This document shows positions 17,001-62,698 of a DNA stretch of 64,000 bases, piece by piece. Every line of letters begins with the position of its first letter. Position 1 is the first letter of the stretch. The position numbers and the translations under genes were made by a program. This DNA comes from Gemmatimonadota bacterium (GTDB lineage Bacteria; Gemmatimonadota; Gemmatimonadetes; Gemmatimonadales; GWC2-71-9), in assembly GCA_003223415.1 (NCBI GenBank), contig QHUY01000028.1:1270-65269 (forward strand), read 5' to 3'. The notes beneath the pieces are model-generated. The model did not search any database and was not told where the DNA came from. It was given only the letters and a program-made list of their open reading frames with translations.

Positions 17001-17023
17001 CGGCTGTCAGACCCCCCCCCCCC

Positions 17024-18301
17024 TCAGGCCGCCACGGGGCGCTTCTTCCCCGTGATGTAGGCTTCGAACTCGCTCTTGAACTTCTTGATCCCGCTCACGA
17101 CCGGTGCGGCGCACGAGTCCGACAGCACGCAGATCGTCTTCCCCGTCATGTTGTCGGCGAGGTCGAGCAGCAGGTCGAGGTCTTTCATGGCGCCCTGCCC
17201 GGTGAGGATCCGCTCCAGAATCCTGGTGGTCCAGGCGGTGCCCTCGCGGCACTGGGTGCACTGGGCGCACGACTCGTGCGCGTAGAACCGTGCGAGTCGC
17301 ATGATCTGGTAGACCATGTCGGTCGAGTCGTCGAACACGATCACGCCGCCCGAACCGAGCATCGTCCCCTTCTCAACGCAGCCCTCGTAGTCCAGCAGGC
17401 AACTCTCGCTCTCCTCCCGGTTGAGAATCGGCACCGAGGAGCCGCCCGGGATGCACGCCTTGAGGGTGCGGCCCGGCCGCATCCCGCCGCCCAACTCGTA
17501 GAGCAGGTCCTTGAGTGGGAACCCCATGGTCACCTCATAGTTGCCGGGCTTGGCGAGATGGCCGCACACGGAGAACAGCTTGGTGCCGGTGCTCTTGGGG
17601 TTGGACAGGCTCAGGCCTTTGTACCAGGCGGCGCCGTTCTTGAGGATGTGGGGGACGGCGACGAGGGTCTCGACGTTGTTGATCGTCGTGGGCATGCCGA
17701 ACACGCCGGCGGCCGCCGGGAACGGCGGCTTGATGCGCGGGTTCCCGCGCTTGCCCTCGATCGAATTCATCATCGCCGTCTCCTCGCCGCAGATGTAGGC
17801 GCCCGCGCCGCGGTGCAGGTAGATCTTCATGTTCCCGAACACGCCGGCGGTGCTCGCTTCGGCGAGCGCCTTCTCCAGGATGGCGAGCGGCTCGGTGAAC
17901 TCGCCACGCACGTAGATGTAGGTCACCTCGGCGCGGATCGCGTGCGCGGCGATCGCCGTCCCTTCCAGCAAGGCGTGCGGCGTCCAGCGCATGATCTCGC
18001 GGTCCTTGAACGTCCCTGGCTCGGACTCGTCCGCGTTCACGCACAGGTAATGGGGCTTCGTTTTCTCCTTCGGCATGAACGACCACTTGAGCCCGGTGGG
18101 GAAGCCCGCGCCGCCGCGGCCGCGCACCCCGGATGTCTTCACTTCTTCGATGATCGCCGCGGGGTCCGTGGCCAGCGCGTTTTTCAAGGCCTCGTAGCCC
18201 CCCCGCCGCACCCAGCCTTTGTAGGTGCGCGCCTCGGGGTCTCCGAAGTGCTTGGAGAGGACGACGGTCTCCCTGGGATGCGGTTTGTGGGGGTAGCCCA
18301 T
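17024..18301 (-). CDS. nuoF: NADH-quinone oxidoreductase subunit F
   Basis: GRGGAGFPTGLKW (FMN/NADH site) and ESCAQCTQCREG (N3 cluster). ATG at 18301, or the adjacent GTG at 18304. Confidence 0.92.
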   Translation of the reverse strand: MGYPHKPHPRETVVLSKHFGDPEARTYKGWVRRGGYEALKNALATDPAAIIEEVKTSGVRGRGGAGFPTGLKWSFMPKEKTKPHYLCVNADESEPGTFKDREIMRWTPHALLEGTAIAAHAIRAEVTYIYVRGEFTEPLAILEKALAEASTAGVFGNMKIYLHRGAGAYICGEETAMMNSIEGKRGNPRIKPPFPAAAGVFGMPTTINNVETLVAVPHILKNGAAWYKGLSLSNPKSTGTKLFSVCGHLAKPGNYEVTMGFPLKDLLYELGGGMRPGRTLKACIPGGSSVPILNREESESCLLDYEGCVEKGTMLGSGGVIVFDDSTDMVYQIMRLARFYAHESCAQCTQCREGTAWTTRILERILTGQGAMKDLDLLLDLADNMTGKTICVLSDSCAAPVVSGIKKFKSEFEAYITGKKRPVAA

Positions 18302-18316
18302 CACCGGTCCTCAAGA

Positions 18317-18436
18317 GTGCGGAATGCGGAATTCGGAATGCGGAATTGGCCGTGCCATGTTCGACCTGGACGGCAGGCCGCGGGGATCGAACCTGCTCCT
18401 GCCATTCCGCATTCCGCACTCCGTATTCCGCATTGG
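18317..18436. repeat. Mirrored heptamer element, family A (unit ATGCGGA, four copies per arm, about 50-nt spacer)
   Basis: Left arm 18317-18350 reads GTGCGGA ATGCGGA ATTCGGA ATGCGGA. Right arm 18401-18436 is its imperfect reverse complement. It lies in the nuoE-nuoF gap and is flanked by TCACCGGT at 18301-18308 and 18441-18448. Confidence 0.85.
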
Positions 18437-18440
18437 TTCT

Positions 18441-18938
18441 TCACCGGTACTTCCTCACCAGCTCGGGGACCTTCTCCGGCGTCACGCTCTCGATAAAGTC
18501 ATCGTTTATGAGGACCGGCGTCGCGAAGCCGCAAGCGCCCAGGCACTCCACCTCGATCACGGTCCACTGGCCGTCGGGGCTCGTCGCGCCCAGGTCCTTC
18601 GCCCCCGTGTGCTCGAGCAGCGCGCGGACCACGCCCTCCGCCCCGCAGATGTTGCACGGCGACGTCGTGCACACCTGCACGAAGTTCTTCCCCACCGGAT
18701 GCTGGTGGTACATCGTGTAAAAAGTGACGACGCCTTTCACGTAGGCCGGCGTGAGCCCCAGCACCTCCGCCACCTCGGTCATGCTGCGGTCGGAGATCCA
18801 GCCGCGCTCGCGCTGCACCAGCCACAGTGCCGGCAGCAGGGCGGCCTGCTTGGCGGGATAGCGCGTCAGGATCTCGTCGAGCTGCGCCCGCGTCTTGCCG
18901 GCGAAGACCGCCTGATACTCCTGCGTCGCGGTGCTCAT
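18441..18938 (-). CDS. nuoE: NADH-quinone oxidoreductase subunit E
   Basis: 2Fe-2S motifs CTTSPCNICG and CLGACGFATP. ATGA overlap with the nuoD stop. 165 aa. Confidence 0.9.
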   Translation of the reverse strand: MSTATQEYQAVFAGKTRAQLDEILTRYPAKQAALLPALWLVQRERGWISDRSMTEVAEVLGLTPAYVKGVVTFYTMYHQHPVGKNFVQVCTTSPCNICGAEGVVRALLEHTGAKDLGATSPDGQWTVIEVECLGACGFATPVLINDDFIESVTPEKVPELVRKYR

Positions 18939-20832: not shown

Positions 20833-21431
20833 GCCGAGCGGTACTGATGAATGGAGTTGCCGAAGGGCTCCGAGATCTCGTCGATCTGCTCGGGCGGGAG
20901 CCGGAGCCCGTGCGCATCGAGCGGCTGCTCGTCGCGCAGGCCGGGGATCGCGAGGGATTCACCTTTGATCTTCTTGTGGAGCAGCAGCACGCCGTACAGC
21001 AGCCCCTCAGGGCGCGGCGGGCAGCCCGGGACGTAGACGTCCACGGGCACGATTGTGTCGATGCCCTGCACCATCGCGTAGTTGTCGAAGATGCCGCCAG
21101 TCGAGGCACAGGCGCCCATCGAGATGACCCACTTGGGCTGGGGCATCTGGTCGTAGATGGTGCGGATGACCGGCGCCAGCTTGAACGGCAGCCGGCCGGC
21201 ACAAATGAGCACGTCCGCCTGGCGCGGGGAGAAGGCCTGCCGCTCCATCCCGAAGCGCGCGAAGTCGTAGCGGCTCGCCGCAGTGGCCATGAACTCGATC
21301 GCGCAGCAGGCGGTGCCGAACGGCATCGGCCACAGGGAGTTGGCGCGCGCCCAGTTCACCAGCGCGTCGAACCGGGTCAACAGCCAATTCTGGCTCCCCG
21401 ACACCTCTTTGGTCTCGAAGACTCGTTTCAT
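20829..21431 (-). CDS. nuoB: NADH-quinone oxidoreductase subunit B
   Basis: N2-cluster cysteines in [16 protein letters not shown] and VPGCPPRPE. 200 aa. Confidence 0.92.
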
Positions 21432-21433
21432 AC

Positions 21434-21546
21434 TACGAAATCCGTCGAGGAAAGGCGTCGAGAGGCAAGGCGTCGAGGGAATACGTCAAGGGAGTACGTC
21501 TCCCCTCGACGATTCTCCTCGACGTTTCTCCTCGACGCCTTCGTAG
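21434..21546. repeat. Mirrored tandem-repeat element, family B (unit CGTCGAGG plus purine-rich tail)
   Basis: Four direct units followed by three to four inverted units. The termini are CTACGAA...TTCGTAG. It fills the entire nuoA-nuoB gap and is homologous to 25161-25248. Confidence 0.85.
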
Positions 21547-21945
21547 TCAGTCCCATTTCAACGCCCCCCGCTTCCACACGTACACGTATCCCACGAACAA
21601 AATGACCAGGAACACCAGCATCTCGATCAGCAGGAACCCCATCGCCGGCCCGCCCGTCCCCGCCCCGGTGAAGAAGATCGTCCCCCACGGGATCAGGAAT
21701 ACGGTCTCAATGTCGAACAGAATGAACAGCATCGCCACCAGGTAGAACTTGATCGAGAAGCGCTCGCGCGCGCTCCCCAGCGGCGGCATGCCGCTCTCGT
21801 ACGGGGCGGCCTTGGCGTGCGTGGGGCGGCGCGGCGCGGCGAAGTGGGAGAGGACGATCATCATCACCGCCGTTCCGGCGGCGACGGCGAGCAGGATCAG
21901 GAACGGGAGGTAGGGCTGGAGCATGGAGTTCGTGAAAAAATTCAC
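21547..21945 (-). CDS. nuoA: NADH-quinone oxidoreductase subunit A
   Basis: PYESG...FYLVAMLFILFDIE signature. GTG at 21945, or ATG at 21924 (MLQPYLPFL). Confidence 0.88.
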   Translation of the reverse strand: MNFFTNSMLQPYLPFLILLAVAAGTAVMMIVLSHFAAPRRPTHAKAAPYESGMPPLGSARERFSIKFYLVAMLFILFDIETVFLIPWGTIFFTGAGTGGPAMGFLLIEMLVFLVILFVGYVYVWKRGALKWD

Positions 21946-22595: not shown

Positions 22596-22992
22596 CCGAG
22601 CCGTAGAGCGTAATGGCCGCCGCCGCCACGGCCAGGATGACGATGTCCGGCCCCCAGCCGAGCTCGGTCTTGGGCACGACCATCTGCACGAAGTTGAGGA
22701 CCAAGTCGAACAGCCCGATGAGCAGGCCGAGCAGCACGGTCTTCTCCAATCCGCGCCCGAGCCGGGCTAGCACGCTCCCCGTGAGCACCGCCACCGCTCC
22801 CTGCCCCGCCGCGATGGCGAGCGCCGCCTCGATGTCACTGACCAGGGTTTGCAGGAAGCCCGACCGCCCCACGTGGTAGCTGAAGAACCAGGTGTGCACC
22901 AGCGCGACGGCGATGCCCGCCAGGGCCGCGCAGATCGTTGCCCAGACGGCGTAATAGATCACGACTCTCATTCGATTATCCGACTCGACCAT
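22576..22992 (-). CDS. Hypothetical membrane protein (about 4 TM)
   Basis: 138-aa hydrophobic ORF with GGAGGA 4 nt upstream of the ATG. It overlaps the dcd 3' end convergently by 20 nt. I recognise no family. Confidence 0.5.
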
Positions 22993-23009
22993 ACGGTCCT
23001 CCTTGGGCA

Positions 23010-23069
23010 GCCATCAGCCATCAGCCATCAGCCGTCAGCTCTCAACCATCAGCTCTGATGGCTGACGGC
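23010..23069. repeat. Tandem heptamer array, family C (GCCATCA x3, GCCGTCA, GCTCTCA, ACCATCA) ending in a bulged hairpin
   Basis: Read directly. TGATGG/CTGACGGC (23056-23069) pairs back onto ACCATCA and GCCGTCAG. It lies between the M28 peptidase stop and the start of the 22992 gene. Confidence 0.75.
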
Positions 23070-23074
23070 TCTCC

Positions 23075-25147
23075 TCAACGCAGGGCGGTCGCCGCCTGCT
23101 CCAGCGCTTCGCGGGCCTGGTCGATATGGGCGGCGAGGTCCTGCAGCTCCCGTCCGGTCGTCGCCTCGTCCGCGTAGCGAATCGCCTCGTTCACCGACGG
23201 GAAGGCCATGGTGGAGTAGCCGTTGTCGATGTCCGAGGCGAACTGCAGGCTCCGCATCCACGGGCGGCTCGCCAGACCCTGGGGTCGCGCCAGCCGGCGC
23301 TCGACCTGCAGCAGCGCCTGGGTGGCGCGCGTCACTCGTGCGGGCTCCGCGCCCGCCGCGAGTGCGCTGTCGCGCACCGCCGCGAAGGCCCGCGCCGCCT
23401 CGGTAAGCCGACCCAGCGCGTAACGCAGCGGCGCGGTACTCACGGTCCAGTGCTTCTGGGAGATCCCGTTGTCGAGCTCGGCGACAAGCCCCGTCATCTC
23501 GGTGCCGAAGGCGACGTAATCGAGGGGCACGACGTCCGCGTTCGCGAGCCGGGAGAGAATCACCGCGACGACCTGGGCGGCCGCGCGGTGGGCGCGGTAC
23601 TGCGGGTCCCCGAACGTCGTCATCCAGTGATAGGAATCGTACATCGAGTGGTACACCCCGCCCGGCCCCCCGAACCCGATGCCACCCGAGGGAATGCCGA
23701 GGTGGTGATAGAACCCGGCGAAGTCGGAGCCGCCTCCCAGGTTCCCGAGCGTCAGCTGGGTCGTGTCGCCCTTCCGCTGTCGCAGCCAGGTGTCGTACAC
23801 GTTGCCGTTTCCCTCCGGGTCCGGCACCACCTGCGTCGCCCCCCGGATCAACGGCTTCAGCGACGGCGAGCCGGAACCGCCGAACTGCATTCCCGTCGCC
23901 ACATCGTCCTCATTGATGTACGCCACGAGGCGCGCCCGGAGCGTGTCCTCCATCTCCTCGACCCACTCGGTGGAGCCGATGAGGCCCCACTCCTCGGCGT
24001 CCCACGTCGCGAACACCAGGGTTCGCGCCGGCCTGATCCCCTGCTTCGCCAGCTCGGCGAAGGCCCGCGCCGCTTCGAGCACCGTGACCGTTCCGCTGAT
24101 GTTGTCGGCGGCGCCCGGTGACCAGGCGTCGCGGTGGCCGCCCACGACGACCCATTCGTCCGGAAAGCGGGCGCCGCGGATCATCCCGAAGGTGTCCCAG
24201 ATGGCGTGCATGGCCCGCGCGCCGCGCTCGGTCTTCACCTTGAGGCGCGCGCGTGTCGGCCCCGGGCCGGCGTGGTAGCGGAACGGCAGGGCTCCCTGCC
24301 AGGCCTGGGGCACCGAGGCGCCGGCGAGCCCCTGCAGGAACCGCTGGGCGTTGCCGTAGCCCATCGGAAGTACAGGGATATGCGGGATCGCGAGCGAGTC
24401 TTCAGGCACGCGGTGCGCGCCTGCCAGCGAGGCGTAGCCGGGGGTGGTCGGGTCGCCGTCGTCGTTCATGATGCTGCCGCGCTGGAGGCCGCCGGCCGGC
24501 CGCATCGGGCCTTTGGCGTAGACGTCACCCCGGAAGTAGCCGTCGTCCTGGGGGTCCGAGTAGATGATCAACCCCACGGCGCCGTGGCGCTCCGCCTCGC
24601 GCGCCTTGATGCCCCGGAACGAGCGGCCGTAGCGCGCGATCGCGATCCTGCCCTTCACTCTGATGCCGAGCGAGTCGAGGGTCTTGTAATCCTCGATCAG
24701 CCCGTAGTTGACGTATACCACTTCGGCGGTGACGTCCCCGTCGCCGGTGTAGCCGTTGAACGGCGGCACCTGCGGCCCAAGCGTCGTCGAGTCCGACGGG
24801 ATCGCCGGCTCCCGCAGCGAGAGCGGCTGCGCGGCGCTGCCCGGCGGGGGGAGGAGCAGCCACGCGCGCACCGTATCGGGCCACGGAAGGTAGACGCGGT
24901 ACTCCTTGGTCCACGTTTCGAGACCCCAGGCTCGCATGCGGTTGATCACGGAGTCGCGGGTCGCCGCCTGCTCGGGTCGGCCGGCCACGTGGGGTCGGAG
25001 CGACAGTTCCCGCGTCATCAGCCGGGCGCTCTGAGTGTCGGGGATGGCGAGCAGGAGACGCTCGATCGAGTCTTGCCGCGCCGCGGCCGCCGCACTGAAG
25101 CCGGGCTGTTGGGCGAGCGTCAGGACGGCCAGCAGGATGGGTGTCAT
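23075..25147 (-). CDS. M28 family metallopeptidase with PA and transferrin-receptor-like dimerisation domains (glutamate carboxypeptidase II-like), secreted
   Basis: GGHRDAW and WDAEEWGLIGS metal-ligand motifs plus a signal peptide MTPILLAVLTLAQQ. ATG at 25147; an upstream TTG at 25156 is also possible. Confidence 0.8.
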   Translation of the reverse strand: MTPILLAVLTLAQQPGFSAAAAARQDSIERLLLAIPDTQSARLMTRELSLRPHVAGRPEQAATRDSVINRMRAWGLETWTKEYRVYLPWPDTVRAWLLLPPPGSAAQPLSLREPAIPSDSTTLGPQVPPFNGYTGDGDVTAEVVYVNYGLIEDYKTLDSLGIRVKGRIAIARYGRSFRGIKAREAERHGAVGLIIYSDPQDDGYFRGDVYAKGPMRPAGGLQRGSIMNDDGDPTTPGYASLAGAHRVPEDSLAIPHIPVLPMGYGNAQRFLQGLAGASVPQAWQGALPFRYHAGPGPTRARLKVKTERGARAMHAIWDTFGMIRGARFPDEWVVVGGHRDAWSPGAADNISGTVTVLEAARAFAELAKQGIRPARTLVFATWDAEEWGLIGSTEWVEEMEDTLRARLVAYINEDDVATGMQFGGSGSPSLKPLIRGATQVVPDPEGNGNVYDTWLRQRKGDTTQLTLGNLGGGSDFAGFYHHLGIPSGGIGFGGPGGVYHSMYDSYHWMTTFGDPQYRAHRAAAQVVAVILSRLANADVVPLDYVAFGTEMTGLVAELDNGISQKHWTVSTAPLRYALGRLTEAARAFAAVRDSALAAGAEPARVTRATQALLQVERRLARPQGLASRPWMRSLQFASDIDNGYSTMAFPSVNEAIRYADEATTGRELQDLAAHIDQAREALEQAATALR

Positions 25148-25160
25148 GGGGGACAAGAAT

Positions 25161-25248
25161 ACGTCGAGGGAGAACGTCGAGGGAAGGCGTCGAGGGGAAT
25201 CGTCAACGTCTCTCCTCGACGGTTTTCCTCGACGTTCTCCCTCGACGT
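25161..25248. repeat. Mirrored tandem-repeat element, family B, with a perfect 22-bp outer stem
   Basis: 25161-25182 (ACGTCGAGGGAGAACGTCGAGG) is the exact reverse complement of 25227-25248. The units are CGTCGAGG-like, as in 21434-21546. Confidence 0.88.
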
Positions 25249-25250
25249 AG

Positions 25251-27728
25251 TCAAGTCTTGGGGTTCAAGATGTGATCGATCCGGGCCTGCAAGTCCCCGA
25301 AGTGCGCCCGCGTGGTGCGATCCGTGGCTCGCGCGAGCGCCGTCCGCAGGGTCGCCTGGAGCTCCTGGAGCTCCAGCCGCGCCAGCGCGCGCGCGTCGCC
25401 GGGGCGCGGCGGCGGCGGCACGAAACCCGGGAACTGGCCGAAACCCGGCGGCGGCGTGGTCACGAGCGGCGTGTTGATCAGCCGATCCATCTGGTCCACG
25501 AACGCCCGCTGCAGATTGCGCCGGTAGGCATCCACGACCGGCCGGGTGGCGACGAGCTCGGTGAAGATCCCCCGCCGCACGTCGCTGAACAGGTCGGCCA
25601 GCGTGTAGGCGGTGCCGGGCGGCAGGGTGGCCCCTTGCTCGGCAAGACGCGAGAGACGGGCGTCCTGGAAGAGCGTGTTCAGAATCGCCGTCTGACGCGT
25701 GCGGATGCGCTCCACGAACCCCGTCGGCTCGATGCGCCGCAACACCTGGGCATCGAGGAAGTACAGCGGCGTGGTGAACGCGTGTTCGTTTAAGAACCGG
25801 ACTGCTTCCGCTTGGCGCGCGCGCGGCACGGCGGTGTGGATGACGCCCGCCTGGTCGGGATACTTCTCTTGGCGCCACACGCCCCCCGGCACGACGGCGA
25901 CATGGCCCATCTCGAACGCCCACTGACCGATGAGCCGGCCGTACAGGTCGTCGAGCAACGAGTAGTCCTCGAGCCGGTCGGTCGTCGTCGCCGGGAGCAG
26001 CATCGGCACCAGCCGCATGATGTTCGCGAGGCCGTAGCCGGTGGCCTTCACCGGGTCATCCCCCAGCGCCTCGGTTTGGGTGCGCGGGTCGATGCCGTCC
26101 GGGTTGCCGAACCGCAGCCACGGCATCGAGTCCTGCAGTCGGGCGAGCGAGTCGAGGACGGGGCGCTCGGCGTCCGGCGTCGTGGCGCGAGGAATCCGGC
26201 GGTAGCCCCAGTCGATGACGTAGTAGTCCCACGGGCCGATCTTCGGCATCAACTGCGCGTCGTCCCCCGGCTGGGCCACGTAGTTGTTGCGGGCGTAGTC
26301 CATGATGGAGTACGACGTGCCATTGCGCCGGGAGTAGGTCGGGCTCCGCAGCGAGTCCACCGGATAATAGCCCGACGAGAGCTGGTTGTGCGGAAGACCC
26401 AGAGTGTGCCCGACCTCATGGGTGGCCACGTACGCTACCATCTGCCCCATGAGCGAATCGGGCAGCGGGAGGTGCCGGGCACGCGGGTCCACGGCGCCGA
26501 CCTGGACCCACCACCAGGCCTCGAGCAGGCTGGTGATGTTGTGATACCACCCGATGTTGGATTGGAGGATCTCCCCCGTCCGCGGATCGCTCGTGTGCGG
26601 GCCGTAGGCGTTCTCGATTTGCGAGGGGAGCCAGCGGATGGTCGAGTAGCGCGCGTCGTCCAGGTCGAATGCCGCGTCCTCCTGCGGGGTGGGTGCCCGG
26701 CGCGCCGTGATGGCGTTGGAGAATCCCGCCGCCCGGAACACCGGCTCCCACGCCTCGACTCCCTTGATGAGCCAGGGCGCCCATTTCTCGGGCGTCGCGG
26801 GGTCGAGGTAGAACACGATCGGCTTGACGGGATCGCTAACCGTGGCGCTGGGGTCCTTGGGGTCGAGCCGCCAGCGCGTGATGTAGCAGCGCTCGGCGAC
26901 GCGGTGCCCCTCCCGGCCGTAGTCGAGCTGCCGCACCGAGAAGAAGCCCACCCGGTTGTCGCACAGCCGCTCCGCCATGGGATGGTCGGGCAGCAGCACC
27001 ATCGAGTAGTGCATCTCGAACGACATGGTGCCGAGCCCGCGGTCTCCCGGGACGGAATCGTTCTCGAAGGTGTGGAGCGCCTTGACGTCGATGTTCGTCG
27101 GGAACGAGCGGGCCGTTTCCACCATGGAGCGTGCCGGATCCAGGCGCCGCAGGCGGAAGGCCCGCCGCGCCGTGAGTTCGGGGACGTCCGTCGTGAACAG
27201 CCGAGTCACCTCGATCACGAGGTTCGAGTCGGCGTTCGGGCTGAAGGCCGCCACGTCGAAGCTCATCAGCACCGGCTCGAGGTTCGAGAGGCGCACCGCG
27301 CGCGACACGGGTGTGGAGCTGTCCGCCACGACATCGTAGCTCACGCTGCGCAGCAGTACGCGGTTCCCCATTCGTTGCCAGCGGATGACGCGGCTGTCGA
27401 GGTTCTCACCGCCGTAGCGCGTGCCCTCGGGCGTGGCGGCGTAGTCCACGACGAGCAGGAACTCCTTGCCGAGCTGCGCGCGCGGGATCTCGTAGAACAG
27501 CTTCTCCATCAGGCGGTGCACGATGAACACGCCGGAGTCCGTGGTGGCCCCACGCGTGATCACCTGGGCATACGGCTTTGGTCCCTCCTGCCCAGGGCCG
27601 CCCGGACGTCCACGGGTGGTGTCCTGCGCTTGGGGTTGGGAGGGAGTCGGTTGCCGAGCCGGGAGGGGAGCGGGAGCGGCGGCGCCGGCCAGACCGGCGA
27701 GCGCCAGCAGGACGCGGAAGGCTCGCAT
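25251..27728 (-). CDS. Secreted zinc-dependent metalloprotease (metzincin-like, DUF5117/DUF4953-type)
   Basis: HEVGHTLGLPHN zinc motif and a signal peptide MRAFRVLLALAGLAGA. ATG at 27728. The longer ORF upstream is antisense to the SBP gene. 825 aa. Confidence 0.8.
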   Translation of the reverse strand: MRAFRVLLALAGLAGAAAPAPLPARQPTPSQPQAQDTTRGRPGGPGQEGPKPYAQVITRGATTDSGVFIVHRLMEKLFYEIPRAQLGKEFLLVVDYAATPEGTRYGGENLDSRVIRWQRMGNRVLLRSVSYDVVADSSTPVSRAVRLSNLEPVLMSFDVAAFSPNADSNLVIEVTRLFTTDVPELTARRAFRLRRLDPARSMVETARSFPTNIDVKALHTFENDSVPGDRGLGTMSFEMHYSMVLLPDHPMAERLCDNRVGFFSVRQLDYGREGHRVAERCYITRWRLDPKDPSATVSDPVKPIVFYLDPATPEKWAPWLIKGVEAWEPVFRAAGFSNAITARRAPTPQEDAAFDLDDARYSTIRWLPSQIENAYGPHTSDPRTGEILQSNIGWYHNITSLLEAWWWVQVGAVDPRARHLPLPDSLMGQMVAYVATHEVGHTLGLPHNQLSSGYYPVDSLRSPTYSRRNGTSYSIMDYARNNYVAQPGDDAQLMPKIGPWDYYVIDWGYRRIPRATTPDAERPVLDSLARLQDSMPWLRFGNPDGIDPRTQTEALGDDPVKATGYGLANIMRLVPMLLPATTTDRLEDYSLLDDLYGRLIGQWAFEMGHVAVVPGGVWRQEKYPDQAGVIHTAVPRARQAEAVRFLNEHAFTTPLYFLDAQVLRRIEPTGFVERIRTRQTAILNTLFQDARLSRLAEQGATLPPGTAYTLADLFSDVRRGIFTELVATRPVVDAYRRNLQRAFVDQMDRLINTPLVTTPPPGFGQFPGFVPPPPRPGDARALARLELQELQATLRTALARATDRTTRAHFGDLQARIDHILNPKT

Positions 27729-42611: not shown

Positions 42612-44495
<1,884 letters not shown>

Positions 44496-45517: not shown

Positions 45518-46273
45518 CTAGGTGAAATCCGGAATGACGGCGCGGCCGAACGTCACGGCGGTGATGATCGCACCGGTGCCAGCCGCGGCCAGAGTCCGCG
45601 CCGCCTCGCTGAGCGTCGCCCCGGTGGTGAAGACGTCGTCGACCAAAACCAGTGTGGAGTGCGGCATGCGGGGTGCGGAGTCTTCGGGGGCGCGCTCATT
45701 CCGCATTCCACCCTCCGCATTCGGCACTTGAAACGCCCCCGCCACATTCGCCAGACGCGCGGCCGGTGTCAACGCCGTTTGCGAGACAGTGTCCCGGCAT
45801 CGCACGAGGAGATCGGCCCGCACGGAGAGACGCCACCGGCGCCCCAGCGACCGGGCGAGCCGCTCGCTCTGATTGTAGCCCCGCTCCTTCAGCCGTCGGG
45901 GGCCGAGGGGGACGGGCACCAGCACCGCCGGCGGCACGGGGCGCGGCAGGTGGCGGACCATCGCGTCGGCGAGGTCGTCGGCGCTGCGCGGCAGGCCGCC
46001 GTACTTGAGCGCGTGGACCACCTCGCGCGCGCCGGCGTCCAGCCACACCGCCGAGCGCACGGTGGCGAGCGCGCCCGGCCAGTCGCGGCACAGGCGACAC
46101 AGGCCGAAATGCGGCTCCGGCTGGCCGCACCGCTCGCACCAGGGCGGTCGCACCGCACGCCAGCGGGAACGGCAGGCAGGACACACCACTGCGTCGGCTT
46201 GCGCCCACAGCAGCAGTCCCCGACAGCGCAAGCACTCGGCGGGGAGGAGGAGCTGCTCGAGCGCGCTAGGCAC
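45518..46273 (-). CDS. ComF family protein (phosphoribosyltransferase domain with N-terminal Cys-rich zinc ribbon)
   Basis: CLRC...CPAC...CERCG...CRLC N-terminus. RGYNQSE and [17 protein letters not shown] motif. It contains the family A repeat in frame. Confidence 0.8.
45657..45728. repeat. Mirrored heptamer element, family A (short-spacer copy), inside the comF-like CDS
   Basis: The left arm reads GTGCGGC ATGCGGG GTGCGGA. The right arm reads TCCGCAT TCCACCC TCCGCAT TCGGCAC. The element is about 72 nt. Confidence 0.75.
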
Positions 46274-47111
46274 GGAGCGCGCGGGCGACGGCCGCGCGCA
46301 TCACGTCCAGGGGAGGCACTTCGCCCGGGAAGAAGCGCGTGAACGCGGCCGCCCCCTGGTGCACCAGCAGCTCGCGCCCGTCGCACGCCGTGATCCCCGC
46401 GGCGCGCAGCGCGCGGACCCAGGGCGTCTCCCCGGGGGCGTAGACGAGGTCCAGCGCGGCCCGGGTGCCGTTCAGATGCGTCGGTAGGATCGGCAAGGCG
46501 TCGGTTTCCTTGAGCCCGAGGGGCGTGGTGTTGATCACGATGTCGCACGGCTCCGTTGCCGCCGCGACACGCGCGGCGACCTTGCGGGAGGCGGCCCAGT
46601 CGACGAACGCCCGGGCGCGGCCCGGCTCGCGCGAGCGCACCAGCACCAGCGCCCGGACGTCGGCGGCGGCGATCGCGACGGCCCGAGCGGACCCACCCGT
46701 GCCGAGCACCAGCCACCGCTCGGCTCCGTCGACCCCCTCCCCCCCGCCCCCCCCCCCGACCAGGGTGTGCAGGGCGGCGCGCACGCCCGGCACGTCCGTG
46801 TTGTCGCCGACCAGCGCGCCGTGCTCGGTCCAGAACGTATTGCACGCCCCCACGCGCTCGCACAGATCCGTTTTCCGCGCGACGTACCGTTCCGTCGCTT
46901 CTTTGTGCGGCACGGTTACGTTGCCGGCCGCCTCCACGGCGGCGAGCGCCTGCAGCACGGTCGGCAAGGCCGTGGCCGAGGTGCGCAGCGCGACGAAAGC
47001 GGCATCCAGGCCCAGGGCGCGGATGGCGGCGTTGTGCATGCAAGGCGAGAGGGAATGAGCGACGGGGTCGCCGAGGACGGCGAGGAGCCGGGTACTAGCG
47101 CCGATCTCCAT
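46266..47111 (-). CDS. aroE: Shikimate dehydrogenase
   Basis: SLSPCMHNAA, NVTVPHK, GDNTD and LGTGGSARAV. It contains the in-frame G-tract GGGGGGEG. Confidence 0.88.
   Translation of the reverse strand: MEIGASTRLLAVLGDPVAHSLSPCMHNAAIRALGLDAAFVALRTSATALPTVLQALAAVEAAGNVTVPHKEATERYVARKTDLCERVGACNTFWTEHGALVGDNTDVPGVRAALHTLVGGGGGGEGVDGAERWLVLGTGGSARAVAIAAADVRALVLVRSREPGRARAFVDWAASRKVAARVAAATEPCDIVINTTPLGLKETDALPILPTHLNGTRAALDLVYAPGETPWVRALRAAGITACDGRELLVHQGAAAFTRFFPGEVPPLDVMRAAVARALRA
46733..46757. repeat. G-rich tract in aroE (coding strand G11-C-G7-A-G5)
   Basis: The plus strand reads C5 T C7 G C11, counted directly. It shares GTC-G11-C-G7 with the tpiA tract. Confidence 0.9.
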
Positions 47112-51672: not shown

Positions 51673-52435
51673 CCCAGGTCGGTCGCTTCCAGTTGGGGTT
51701 GCGCAGCAGGGCCGCCGGGTGATAGGTGACGATCAGCGGAATGCCCCGGAAGCGGTGCATCTTGTTCCGCAGGGCACCCAGCGCCTGCTTGGTGTCGAGC
51801 AGCGTCTGCGCCGCCGTCCCGCCCATCGCCAGGATCACCTTGGGGGCCAACAGCTCGAGCTGGCGGAACAGGTACGGCGTGCACGCGGCGATTTCATCGT
51901 ACTGCGGAGCCCGATTCTCCGGCGGGCGGCACTTCACGACGTTGCAGATGAACACCAGCTCGCGCGGCAGGTCGATGGCGGCGAGGATCTTGGTCAGCAG
52001 CTCGCCCGCTTGCCCCACGAACGGCCGGCCGGTCGCATCCTCCGTGCGGCCCGGCCCCTCTCCCACCACGACGAGACGCGCGTCCACCGGGCCCTCGCCC
52101 GGGACCGTGTGCGTGCGGCTCTCGCACAGCCGGCACCTGGTGCAATCGGCCACCAGCCGGGCGACGGCGCCCAAGTCGGCGGCCTGCTGGACCGGATCCG
52201 TGGAGAACAGGTCGCCGGATGGCGGGTCGAACGAGAGCCCTGGAGGTAGGAGCTCGGATGGGGCGGCGGCGGGACTCGGGGCTCGGGACTCGGGACTCGG
52301 GGGGAGCGCGCCCGACCTCGAGCCCCCCGAATCCCGAGCCCCGAGCCCCGAGTCCCCAGGCAGCACGACCGTGTCTCCCCCCACGAGCCGCTGCTGTTCC
52401 AGGTATGCGCGCGCCAGTGCCCGAGCGTCGCTCAC
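51635..52435 (-). CDS. udg: Family 4 uracil-DNA glycosylase with N-terminal extension
   Basis: CTRCRLCE, VGEGPGRTEDATGRPFVGQAG and HPAALLRNP. GTGA overlap with the coaBC stop. The linker contains the family D hairpin. Confidence 0.85.
   Translation of the reverse strand: MSDARALARAYLEQQRLVGGDTVVLPGDSGLGARDSGGSRSGALPPSPESRAPSPAAAPSELLPPGLSFDPPSGDLFSTDPVQQAADLGAVARLVADCTRCRLCESRTHTVPGEGPVDARLVVVGEGPGRTEDATGRPFVGQAGELLTKILAAIDLPRELVFICNVVKCRPPENRAPQYDEIAACTPYLFRQLELLAPKVILAMGGTAAQTLLDTKQALGALRNKMHRFRGIPLIVTYHPAALLRNPNWKRPTWDDVRIARRLLDR
52271..52357. repeat. Mirrored heptamer element, family D (GGGACTC/GGGGCTC), about 34-bp stem with 2 mismatches, inside the udg CDS
   Basis: Left arm 52271-52304 and right arm 52319-52357, compared base by base. 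The spacer is 14 nt. Confidence 0.88.
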
Positions 52436-61249: not shown

Positions 61250-61597
61250 ATGCGACGCGGATCGCTGTTGCCGACTCTCGTACTGGCCGCGGGCACCTGG
61301 CTCGCCGCCGGGTCGGGCGGCGTGACGCTGCGGGCGATCGCCGCCTGCCGGCACCACGCCGCCGCGCACGCATCGCACGCCGGGCACCATACCGAGGTGC
61401 CGCCCGGCACGCCGTGCTGGTGCGACGAGATGACCGGCGGCGGTGACGCGCTGCTGGCACCCGCCCTGCCGGCTCCGACGGTGGTCGCACCGATCACCGA
61501 GGCGGTGATCGCTGCCTTGCCATTCCCCATTCCCCTTTCCCCCTTCCCCGGTTTCGTCCGGGGTCCGATTCCACCCCCTCCGAACCCGCTCGCCTGA
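61250..61597 (+). CDS. Small secreted His/Cys-rich protein (hypothetical)
   Basis: Signal-like N-terminus MRRGSLLPTLVLAAGTWLAAG, then CRHHAAAHASHAGHH...CWC. GAGG lies upstream. The C-terminal approximately 25 aa are encoded by a heptamer array. Confidence 0.5.
   Translation: MRRGSLLPTLVLAAGTWLAAGSGGVTLRAIAACRHHAAAHASHAGHHTEVPPGTPCWCDEMTGGGDALLAPALPAPTVVAPITEAVIAALPFPIPLSPFPGFVRGPIPPPPNPLA
61522..61582. repeat. Half-array of heptamers (ATTCCCC x2, TTTCCCC, CTTCCCC) plus an ATTCCACCCCCTCCG segment related to family A
   Basis: Read directly. ATTCCACCC(C)CTCCG also occurs in the right arm of 45657-45728. No mirrored partner was seen. Confidence 0.6.
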
Positions 61598-61645: not shown

Positions 61646-62698
61646 ATGCACAGTGCGCTGGTGTGCGCGCTGTCCTGCGCCATTGCGGCGACAGCCGCGT
61701 CGCAGGAGCGCCAGGTGACGTTCGAAGAGCCCCAGCCGGTCACGATCACCGGCTTCGCCGTGGGCCGCGCGGACTTGGACCGCGCCGCCCGCAGCAGCTC
61801 GTTCTCGGCCGGTAAGCTGGCCGTGAGCTTCTTCAAACCGGTCGGGGATGCCTACGTGTTCGGGCAGCTCACCACCGCCCTCCAAGACGGGGTGTCCTCG
61901 ACGGAGATCGACAACCTCATCGTGAGCTGGACGCCCCACACGGCGACGCGCTGGACCGCCGCGTTCGGTCGGTTCGACGCGCCGATCGGCTTCGAGCGGG
62001 ACGACGAGCCGCTCAACTTCGTCCCGACTTCTTCCTTCAACTTCGAGCTTGCCCGGCCGTCCAAGCTGACCGGCGCCATCATGCGCTTCACCGCCTCGCC
62101 TACGGTCGAGCTCGTCGCCGCTGTGGCCAACGGCTGGAACGTCGCCGTGGACAACAATCGCAACAAGACCGGCCTGCTCCGCGCGCAGTGGATCTCACGG
62201 CCGGGCCTCACAGTGGCCGTGACGGGCGTATACGGCCCCGAGCGGGACAGCACGAGCGGGCATCTGCGGGCGCTGCTCTCGAACGATGTCACCTTGGAGA
62301 TCGGCCGTGTCATCGTCGGCACCGAATTGAACCTCGGCCGGGAGCGCGCAGTGCCGGGAGTCGACCTCTCGTGGACGGGGGCGGCGGCCACCGGGTTCGC
62401 GCGCCTGGGCCGGCAGTGGGGTCTCACCGCACGCTACGAGTACCTCGATGATCGCCATGGCGCTCTCGGCGCCGGGACCATCTTGCAGTCGCTCACGATG
62501 GGCCCGATGTGGTTCTTCCGCAGTGCGCAGGAGGGAATCTTCAGCAACATCGAGCACACCACGTTTCATCTGCCCCAGGTGGGGATCCGGGCGGCCGTGC
62601 GGCTCGACGACGCGCGCTCCCCCTTCTTCAAAGACTCTGGAGCCTCACTCCAGCGCACCAACACCCGCGCGGTGATCGAGTTGGTATACCTCTTCTAA
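61646..62698 (+). CDS. Outer-membrane beta-barrel porin-like protein
   Basis: Signal peptide, alternating amphipathic strands, and a C-terminal ...IELVYLF (terminal Phe). 350 aa. Confidence 0.65.
   Translation: MHSALVCALSCAIAATAASQERQVTFEEPQPVTITGFAVGRADLDRAARSSSFSAGKLAVSFFKPVGDAYVFGQLTTALQDGVSSTEIDNLIVSWTPHTATRWTAAFGRFDAPIGFERDDEPLNFVPTSSFNFELARPSKLTGAIMRFTASPTVELVAAVANGWNVAVDNNRNKTGLLRAQWISRPGLTVAVTGVYGPERDSTSGHLRALLSNDVTLEIGRVIVGTELNLGRERAVPGVDLSWTGAAATGFARLGRQWGLTARYEYLDDRHGALGAGTILQSLTMGPMWFFRSAQEGIFSNIEHTTFHLPQVGIRAAVRLDDARSPFFKDSGASLQRTNTRAVIELVYLF

Follow-up and report, generated by a model that had tools for sequence, protein, structure and literature searches.

Heptamer repeats arranged as inverted pairs have been described in Xanthomonas, as (GGGAATC)n ... 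(GATTCCC)n, together with related GGGGA(T/C)T repeats in Nostoc (Rehm et al. 2015, PMC4692102). The Xanthomonas arrays mostly count four units, are about 90% intergenic and lie very near upstream stop codons (28 nt on average), and each genome carries 70-75 convergent inverted pairs that are able to form stem-loops and are not linked to insertion sequences (PMC4692102). Other short palindromic repeats include REP (repetitive extragenic palindromic) elements, BIMEs and REPINs with RAYT (Y1) transposases (PMC3116915, PMC3333891), and bacterial MITEs (miniature inverted-repeat transposable elements) such as Correia/NEMIS (reviewed in PMC3184786). At gene junctions, NTGA and TGATG are standard termination-reinitiation overlaps, and translating ribosomes open inhibitory hairpins (PMC12548453). 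Here we consider a 64,000-nt stretch of a Gemmatimonadota genome (GenBank assembly GCA_003223415.1, contig QHUY01000028.1), referred to as the window, in which a 132-nt mirrored-heptamer element lies between nuoE and nuoF of the complex I operon and is flanked by an 8-bp direct repeat. We propose that a copy of a dispersed repeat family landed in a TGATG junction, duplicated at least 8 bp and persists as a frame-locked bridge relaying translation from one gene to the next, an explanation that comparative sequence data render, as a whole, fairly probable. The frame-locked bridge is in our view the most interesting result.

The insert between nuoE and nuoF

The complex I operon of the window comprises 14 genes and nearly every junction is a stop/start overlap, with TGATG at nuoH/nuoI, nuoJ/nuoK and nuoK/nuoL, as stated in an earlier note on this DNA, and NTGA overlaps or gaps of 3-4 nt at most others. 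The nuoE/nuoF junction is composed as follows.

18441-18938, minus strand: nuoE, 165 aa, 2Fe-2S thioredoxin-like fold
18441-18448, minus strand: 8-bp repeat, upstream copy (coding-strand sequence ACCGGTGA), holding the nuoE TGA and the GTG (18444-18442) that opens the putative relay frame
18309-18440, minus strand: the insert (132 nt), which belongs to the GCGGAAT mirrored-heptamer family and has the long form of the core
18404-18434, minus strand: 5' arm, in transcription sense AATGCGG AATACGG AGTGCGG AATGCGG AAT
18347-18403, minus strand: 57-nt core, homologous to those of other copies in the family and containing an imperfect stem of its own (GGTTCGA ... TCGAAC)
18316-18346, minus strand: 3' arm, mirrored, in transcription sense ATTCCGC ATTCCGA ATTCCGC ATTCCGC ACT
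18301-18308, minus strand: 8-bp repeat, downstream copy; its TGA (18303-18301) ends the putative relay frame, the final A being also the first base of the nuoF ATG
17024-18301, minus strand: nuoF, 425 aa

The 8-mer reads TCACCGGT on the plus strand, at 18301-18308 and again at 18441-18448, with the insert (18309-18440) between. Read in coding sense, the upstream copy gives TAC CGG TGA and ends with the nuoE stop (18443-18441), and the downstream copy gives CCG GTG ATG, with the nuoF start (18301-18299) as the last codon; the coordinates and both readings agree with those given in the earlier note. In coding order the insert consists of a 5' linker (AGAACC), four heptamers, the core, four mirrored heptamers and the 3' linker CTCTTGAGG, which together with the first A of the repeat forms a Shine-Dalgarno-like GAGGA motif. 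The complementary parts of the arms (18318-18346 and 18404-18432) are 29 nt each and 90% complementary, with four TGCGGAA units, one set mirrored, in agreement with the hairpin of roughly 30 bp that the note had placed inside the complex I polycistron. As RNA, the insert has a predicted folding energy of -69 kcal/mol (z = -6.4 versus shuffles) and, with its flanks, of -79 kcal/mol. In the latter fold the two 8-mers pair with each other because six of their eight bases (ACCGGT) are a palindrome, which is a caveat on the repeat, as is its extension to 10 of 11 bases, AG[T/G]ACCGGTGA. A tRNA-like nature of the core was considered, since GGTTCGATCC resembles a T-arm, and rejected: ARAGORN finds nothing, and Rfam gives no match at gathering score and chance-level hairpin matches alone at E <= 1. 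The 22-mer occurs once in the window. Further along the operon, the 23-nt nuoF/nuoG spacer is mostly a 12-G run on the coding strand (window 17012-17023), presumably the ribosome-binding site, and holds no spanning frame.

Relatives and metagenome contigs compared with the window carry labels of the form L###. When the insert and one 8-mer are removed from the window, the junction reads GTACCGGTGATGGGC / GTACCGGTGATGGGCTACCCCCACAAACCGCAT, i.e. the TGATG overlap that the earlier note had predicted for an empty site. Such a site is found in L214, whose NuoE is 88% identical: it reads GTACCGCTGATGGGC / gtaccgcTGATGGGCTACCCCCACAAACCGCAC, one synonymous base off the predicted excision product. Empty sites number five (L214, L215, L014, L012 and L051), with TAATG in L215 and tatcgcTGATGGGG in L014, and occupied ones include those of the window, L011, L167, L015 and L016. 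A NuoF scan of species-representative genomes shows a one-base stop/start overlap (-1) between nuoE and nuoF in most Gemmatimonadales relatives; nearer relatives were reached via NuoE homologues. Soil metagenome contigs and the Gemmatimonadetes metagenome-assembled genome GCA_001918085.1 encode a residue-identical NuoE, and all carry the same insert with two single-base variants. One of them, ACCGG to ATCGG in the downstream 8-mer of L006, indicates that this part of the 8-mer is not strictly constrained. Insertion into a former TGATG junction with target duplication is, from these alignments, supported at this locus.

It is unlikely that the 8-mer flanks the insert by chance. The window holds it five times versus 2.2 expected, and the idea of a common boundary word was rejected, as the other three occurrences all lie within coding sequence. 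When 25-nt flanks of 76 family copies, the window copy included, were compared with cross-paired flanks, about 0.4 exact repeats of at least 8 nt were expected per 76 elements (about 0.5% per element), and the window copy is the sole one to have such a repeat. The 8-mer is also absent from the 30-nt flanks of 80 other copies and was therefore not brought along as the element's own end.

The junction can be followed back in time. In L011/L224 (NuoF 91% identical) the same element sits at the same position with similar arms and a strongly diverged core, and the repeat has decayed to ACCGATGA upstream and AGCGGTAAG downstream. In pairwise comparison L213 is the nearest relative, with about 85-92% nucleotide identity in six 150-nt windows of nuoE and nuoF. 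Its gap is 25 nt, of which 18 positions match, in an alignment by eye, the 5' linker, first heptamer and downstream repeat of the window. As L213 is nearer to the window than L011, and both the latter have the full element, the short spacer of L213 is most simply read as an internal deletion of the hairpin. Judging from these comparisons, the insertion predates the split of the window, L011/L224 and L213 lineages. In a neighbour-joining tree, the empty partners are L051 for L167 (GCGGAAT element) and L014 for L016 (TGATCAA element), and L015 (GCGGATT element) falls with a group that includes the empty L012; either the junction was struck repeatedly, or one old insertion was cleanly lost several times. 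The possibility that homologous recombination brought the L167 element in from the window lineage was rejected, as the L167 flanks are nearest to those of its empty-site sister L051. Another solution at this junction is seen in L216/L219 (1701-1719), where nuoE itself is lengthened in frame by four codons (EGRR) and reaches TGATG.

A reading frame across the junction

Beyond what the earlier note described, the insertion is old and the two 8-mer copies double as the start and stop overlaps of a 47-codon open reading frame (ORF) that crosses the hairpin.

18301-18444, minus strand: inferred relay ORF of 47 codons plus stop, VKNQCGIRSAECGMAGAGSIPAACRPGRTWHGQFRIPNSAFRTLEDR*, from a GTGA overlap with nuoE to the TGATG overlap with nuoF

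All ten occupied nuoE/nuoF junctions sampled have an RTG that overlaps the nuoE stop (RTGA) and opens such a frame, and none of the five empty sites has RTGA. The gaps measure 139, 140, 149, 106 (twice), 82, 52, 31, 25 and 29 nt and involve three different repeat units, and in ten of ten the frame stops at the nuoF start, in overlap with it where the gap is 1 mod 3 and directly before it where the gap is 2 mod 3. The frame of L011 runs from ATGA to a TAA immediately before GTG and also counts 47 codons; further frames of this kind are present in L167, L015 and L220 (ATGA, 36 codons). In L016, with its AT-rich TGATCAA element, the spanning frame is the sole open one, and the short spacers of L013, L211, L213 and L017 fit the pattern as well, deletion remnants keeping the frame. 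The A of ATGA in L011, L015 and L220 comes from the rare codons CGA or CAA, and between L015 and L220 the encoded amino acid differs and this A is retained. With gap length and end fixed, each long insert is open in 0.14-0.30 of shuffles, and the frame-lock costs a further 1/3 per independent length. A public gene caller independently called the orthologous 47-aa ORF in L224/L225 (5498-5641). The frame-lock is conserved across relatives. The part of the peptide encoded by the core is not conserved between the window and L011, and the peptide itself is therefore unlikely to matter.

Two further hairpins of the window are spanned in a similar manner.

21428-21556, minus strand: second putative relay ORF, in the same operon, 42 codons, from an ATG in the last nuoA codons to an ATGA overlap with nuoB, spanning the hairpin at 21432-21546
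25144-25254, minus strand: third putative relay ORF, 36 codons, TTGA ... ATGA, across a mirrored 13-mer hairpin with a DUF4953 met-zincin gene on one side and an M28 peptidase gene on the other

At nuoA/nuoB the start and end pattern holds for gaps of 115, 28 and 154 nt, and in a fourth lineage (105-nt gap) the frame ends 7 nt short of the ATG; the start arises from A-ending codons (AAA, CAA, GAA) or from a G before a conserved TGG. Among the 17 co-directional gaps of at least 20 nt in the window, a relay frame is found only in the three strongest mirrored-repeat hairpins (nuoE/nuoF, nuoA/nuoB and 25148-25250).

Several observations weigh against the explanation proposed above. About 69% of all frames are open through family copies and no frame of a perfect GCGGAAT array holds a stop codon, so openness alone is weak evidence. 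A strict relay frame is present in 11 of 26 tightly spaced co-directional family copies, against 2-3 and 8 after a loop shift of one or two bases, a difference short of significance, and a family-wide test of the coupled versus the other frames gives p = 0.11. The background of RTGA at gene starts is high, at an estimated 0.3-0.4, and the ten nuoE/nuoF lineages are not phylogenetically independent. Regarding the direct repeat, four or five of its eight bases (G-TGA) could persist through function alone, and 75 other family copies show no excess of flanking duplications (Mann-Whitney p = 0.09 and 0.69), exact or mismatch-tolerant. Finally, G:U and A:C pairs in the arms number 74 and 82, without strand bias, being symmetric for sense and antisense, so that the hairpin shows no visible adaptation to the mRNA strand; on these counts, selection on the arms as strand-specific RNA was rejected. 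A relay frame as a general property of the family was likewise rejected, as the family-wide tests are not significant. From the sequence comparisons, support for the relay appears good at the nuo junctions, but does not extend to the family as a rule.

The same figures bear on the view that the spanning frame is a by-product, where the arms are stop-free by chance, the TGATG is inherited and nuoF is initiated independently from GAGGA. Such a view draws on the share of open frames, the family-wide tests and the position of the Shine-Dalgarno-like GAGGA 6 nt ahead of the nuoF ATG. It does not account for nine gap lengths that all satisfy the length rule locking the RTGA start to the terminal stop, for the AT-rich TGATCAA element that keeps this one frame open and no other, for RTGA in ten of ten occupied versus none of five empty sites, for the recurrence of the pattern at nuoA/nuoB or for deletion remnants that retain the frame. 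We regard it as rather unlikely, if deserving of some weight.

For the frame-locked bridge, we propose the following sequence of events. A palindromic repeat of about 100-120 nt, dispersed in soil Gemmatimonadales, entered the ancestral TGATG overlap that joined nuoE to nuoF, and at least 8 bp of the target (ACCGGTGA) were duplicated; this took place ahead of the divergence of the window organism and its nearest sampled relatives. The duplication would rebuild a coupling signal on each side, GTGA over the nuoE stop and TGATG at nuoF, and both overlaps would be supplied at the moment of insertion if the inserted length is 2 mod 3, as it is here (140 nt including one repeat copy). Ribosomes ending nuoE may then restart at the overlapping GTG, translate 47 codons, thereby melting the hairpin, terminate on the nuoF ATG and restart there, i.e. 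coupling would be relayed across the insert. The insert is presumably tolerated in the complex I operon because the duplication rebuilt coupling on each side. That the frame is translated, and that translation is the reason for its conservation, is what we infer from the comparative pattern.

A more general form of this proposal is put forward as a tentative idea. Hairpin repeats in tightly coupled operon junctions may survive only as translated relay mini-ORFs, and the family may even be built for this, the heptamer being stop-free in six frames and the 5' arm offering ATGs in successive frames in either orientation. Perfect GCGGAAT arrays contain one ATG per unit, hence successive ATGs fall in different frames.

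A hairpin of -69 kcal/mol in a stop/start-overlap junction should break the hand-over of ribosomes, and the comparative data suggest that it is tolerated via the frame-locked bridge. If the bridge is translated, it would provide a concrete mechanism by which selfish or structural repeats coexist with translational coupling, and gene callers and small-ORF surveys should expect repeat-derived mini-ORFs in operons. Relay-only survival, if true, would amount to a rule, general and not described so far, by which polycistronic operons take up palindromic repeats; many 'intergenic' repeats of GC-rich bacteria would then actually be translated, and copies could also sit in frame within genes. In the literature we found no description of a repeat-derived mini-ORF relaying coupling between two genes.

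As to the make-up of the other two spanned hairpins, those at 21432-21546 and 25148-25250 are mirrored 13-mers with a unit of approximately CGTCGAGGGAGAA, each filling a co-directional gap, and both spanning frames are read in the same repeat register (…RRNVEENRRGET… and …RENVEENRRGET…). Elsewhere in the window, a 38-nt poly-C run (42905-42942) lies in the part of a pgk-tpi ORF that encodes triosephosphate isomerase, where it is read as 14 glycine codons and the triosephosphate isomerase frame is shifted after it, and a second poly-C/G tract (46733-46757) lies inside a shikimate-dehydrogenase-like gene. Both tracts have the look of poly-G artefacts from sequencing or assembly, or else of hypermutable sequence.

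The dispersed heptamer family and its class

A metagenome scan for mirrored GCGGAATGCGG ... CCGCATTCCGC returned at least 120 matching stretches, from which 80 loci were kept; the counts for the family hold among the matches listed. Mirrored arms are present in every copy retrieved, in part by construction, as the search pattern required them. The scan supports a dispersed multi-copy family with a shared core, to which the element belongs. The consensus of 33 copies of 95-125 nt consists of four AATGCGG, TTGCAGGGnAAGGTCG, a loop, CGAnnCccgCCCTGACA and four TTCCGCA, with two size classes, the window copy belonging to the longer one. Four units make up 80 of 110 arms (55 GC-rich loci), and the median length is 100 nt. 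The 33 copies lie at unrelated loci and share a non-repetitive core of 40-57 nt, which speaks for whole-element copying over growth in place. Copies lie just past genes: the median distance to the stop codon is 4 nt, and 39 of 50 stop-side distances are at most 8 nt. Their contexts are co-directional in 35 cases, convergent in seven and divergent in one, and five copies are within called genes. No linker or target motif is conserved in the interval from stop codon to arm (-5 to +7 nt, mode 4), nor do a conserved tetranucleotide or other conserved bases adjoin the arms.

Concerning the extent of the family, mirrored GCGGAAT hairpins also occur on the AT-rich contigs L106, L113 and L160 (GC 41-47%), which are not Gemmatimonadales-like, so the range of the heptamer, or of the element, extends beyond a single phylum. 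A literature search for repeats in Gemmatimonadetes found nothing relevant. If the bridge proves to be translated, it would also follow that heptamer pairs, known but unexplained in Xanthomonas, extend to another phylum, with the shared core arguing for whole-element copying.

The direct repeat had led the earlier note to read the element as MITE-like, inserted by transposition. The part concerning this locus, insertion with a duplication, stands; the part concerning the family does not, since similarity between the two flanks of other copies equals that of cross-paired controls in exact and mismatch-tolerant comparisons, and a family-wide target duplication was rejected. A classical MITE would be a non-autonomous derivative of an insertion sequence, mobilised by a DDE transposase in trans with 8-bp staggered cuts, and the relay frame would be incidental. 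Duplications of 8 bp are typical of several insertion-sequence families (ISfinder families), and the exact 8-bp repeat together with the predicted empty site in a relative fits such an origin. The element is small and multi-copy with inverted arms, two copies occur in the window, and occupied and empty sites are found among relatives; weaker repeat-like similarity, judged by eye, also flanks the GCGGATT (about 7/10) and TGATCAA (about 6/9) elements at the junction. Against a MITE, the arms are tandem heptamers in place of a unique terminal repeat and are set in from the duplication by 6-9 nt, and the 8-9 nt at the extreme ends of the element (AGAACCAA versus CTCTTGAGG) are neither complementary nor inverted repeats of one another. 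Moreover, flanking repeats are not in excess in the 75 other copies, the similar Xanthomonas heptamer pairs are reported not to be associated with insertion sequences (PMC4692102), and no transposase or integrase Pfam domain was detected among the 36 non-nuo proteins scanned, in line with the earlier note, which had seen no transposase in the window. We consider a classical MITE unlikely. One clean flanking repeat does not make a MITE; the family as a whole is without that signature, and MITE membership is on the present sequences not established for the family. The lack of duplications at other copies also means that the 8-bp duplication here may not reflect the family's usual mode of insertion. 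A possible reconciliation is that duplications decay fast at ordinary sites and that both copies were kept here by selection.

The missing family-wide duplication agrees with a REP/REPIN-like element or another element of a single-strand HUH (Y1) transposase, placed beside a short target motif without duplication, in which case the insert would be a 3'-end hairpin and the 8-mer a product of chance and selection for coupling. In keeping with such elements, copies are extragenic, at gene 3' ends or inside operons, just past stop codons in co-directional or convergent and almost never divergent contexts, with strong hairpins, and the G-TGA of the 8-mer is functionally explicable. Function does not account for the remaining ACCG identity or for the 10/11 match, and L011 keeps a decayed version of the same repeat. 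With about 100-120 nt, heptamer arrays and a shared core, the element exceeds a typical REP (20-40 nt with a conserved 5' tetranucleotide), the arms adjoin no conserved tetranucleotide or linker, and no RAYT-like gene was seen within the 64 kb scanned. This origin appears to us quite improbable.

It has also been floated for heptamer repeats in other bacteria that they originate locally, and heptamer repeats are over-represented in some bacteria (PMC4692102). In that case the hairpin would have grown from a short spacer by heptamer slippage and hairpin-templated copying, with the 8-mer as a slippage duplication. Units that vary by lineage at one junction (GCGGAAT, GCGGATT and TGATCAA) and short spacers of about one unit (L213 and L226) are compatible with local growth. 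The 40-57-nt core and four-unit arms common to 33 copies at unrelated loci point instead to whole-element copying, and the closeness of L213 to the window makes its short spacer more readily a deletion remnant than a seed. A local origin is hence very improbable. Overall, the nearest described kind appears to be the Xanthomonas heptamer inverted pairs, whose tandem 7-nt units, mostly four, in convergent, intergenic pairs near an upstream stop are all present here, with features reminiscent of REP and of Rickettsia palindromic elements (RPE). RPE are palindromic repeats that are inserted in frame into genes and translated.

A resemblance to the latter is seen at the second, degenerate family copy of the window.

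45650-45730, minus strand: degenerate family copy, in frame within a ComF-like gene

The gene (45518-46273, minus strand) encodes a double zinc ribbon and a phosphoribosyltransferase domain, and its orthologues in L130 and L139 retain an in-frame copy of different length, as in RPE. Repeats of other units are present in the window as well. A mirrored CAGCCAT heptamer hairpin (22963-23074) lies between two minus-strand genes; its unit contains TGATG on the coding strand, stops occur in all three frames without a spanning frame, and the downstream gene has its own strong ribosome-binding site, AAGGAGGA. A mirrored CGGGACT / AGTCCCG hairpin (52270-52356) is located in a 257-nt gap between a gene of the uracil-DNA-glycosylase family and coaBC. 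A one-sided CCATTCC array, the complement of GGAATGG, is found at 61520-61549 in a 580-nt divergent gap before the gene at 61646, with no mirrored partner within the 301 nt read.

Comparison with known systems

The window element shares with the Xanthomonas pairs the 7-nt unit, the GGAAT within it, the preference for four units and the mostly co-directional or convergent contexts. It differs in the unit itself (GCGGAAT), in the conserved non-repetitive core between the arms and in the host phylum, Gemmatimonadota, and the target duplication and spanning frame seen here are not reported for Xanthomonas. As GCGGAAT lacks a G3 run, the G-quadruplex idea for the Xanthomonas repeats does not carry over. 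With REP, BIME and REPIN sequences the family has in common that its copies are plentiful palindromes outside genes, located at gene 3' ends or inside operons, form hairpins and show no family-wide target duplication. REPs are, however, single imperfect palindromes, unlike the tandem-heptamer arms and core of this element, and the nuoE/nuoF copy has a flanking duplication and no RAYT gene in the window.

Like Correia/NEMIS and other MITEs, the family is small, non-coding and multi-copy with inverted arms, it may sit co-transcribed in operons, and its nuoE/nuoF copy is flanked by a direct repeat and matched by an empty site in relatives. Unlike them, it shows no duplication of fixed length across the family, its arms do not abut the duplication and no parent insertion sequence is known. 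The likeness to RPE lies in the stop-free sequence of the family, in the copy of the ComF-like locus, in frame and kept in orthologues, and in the open frame around the nuoE/nuoF copy; yet the copies here are mostly extragenic, that of nuoE/nuoF makes up a mini-ORF of its own in place of a protein segment, and the sequences are unrelated. The junction itself is best compared with coupling through structured spacers, as between genes VII and IX of phage f1, where stop/start overlaps likewise occur and the upstream ribosome opens a hairpin otherwise blocking the downstream start. In contrast to phage f1, a dedicated intermediate mini-ORF consisting largely of a repeat would here relay coupling between two real genes.

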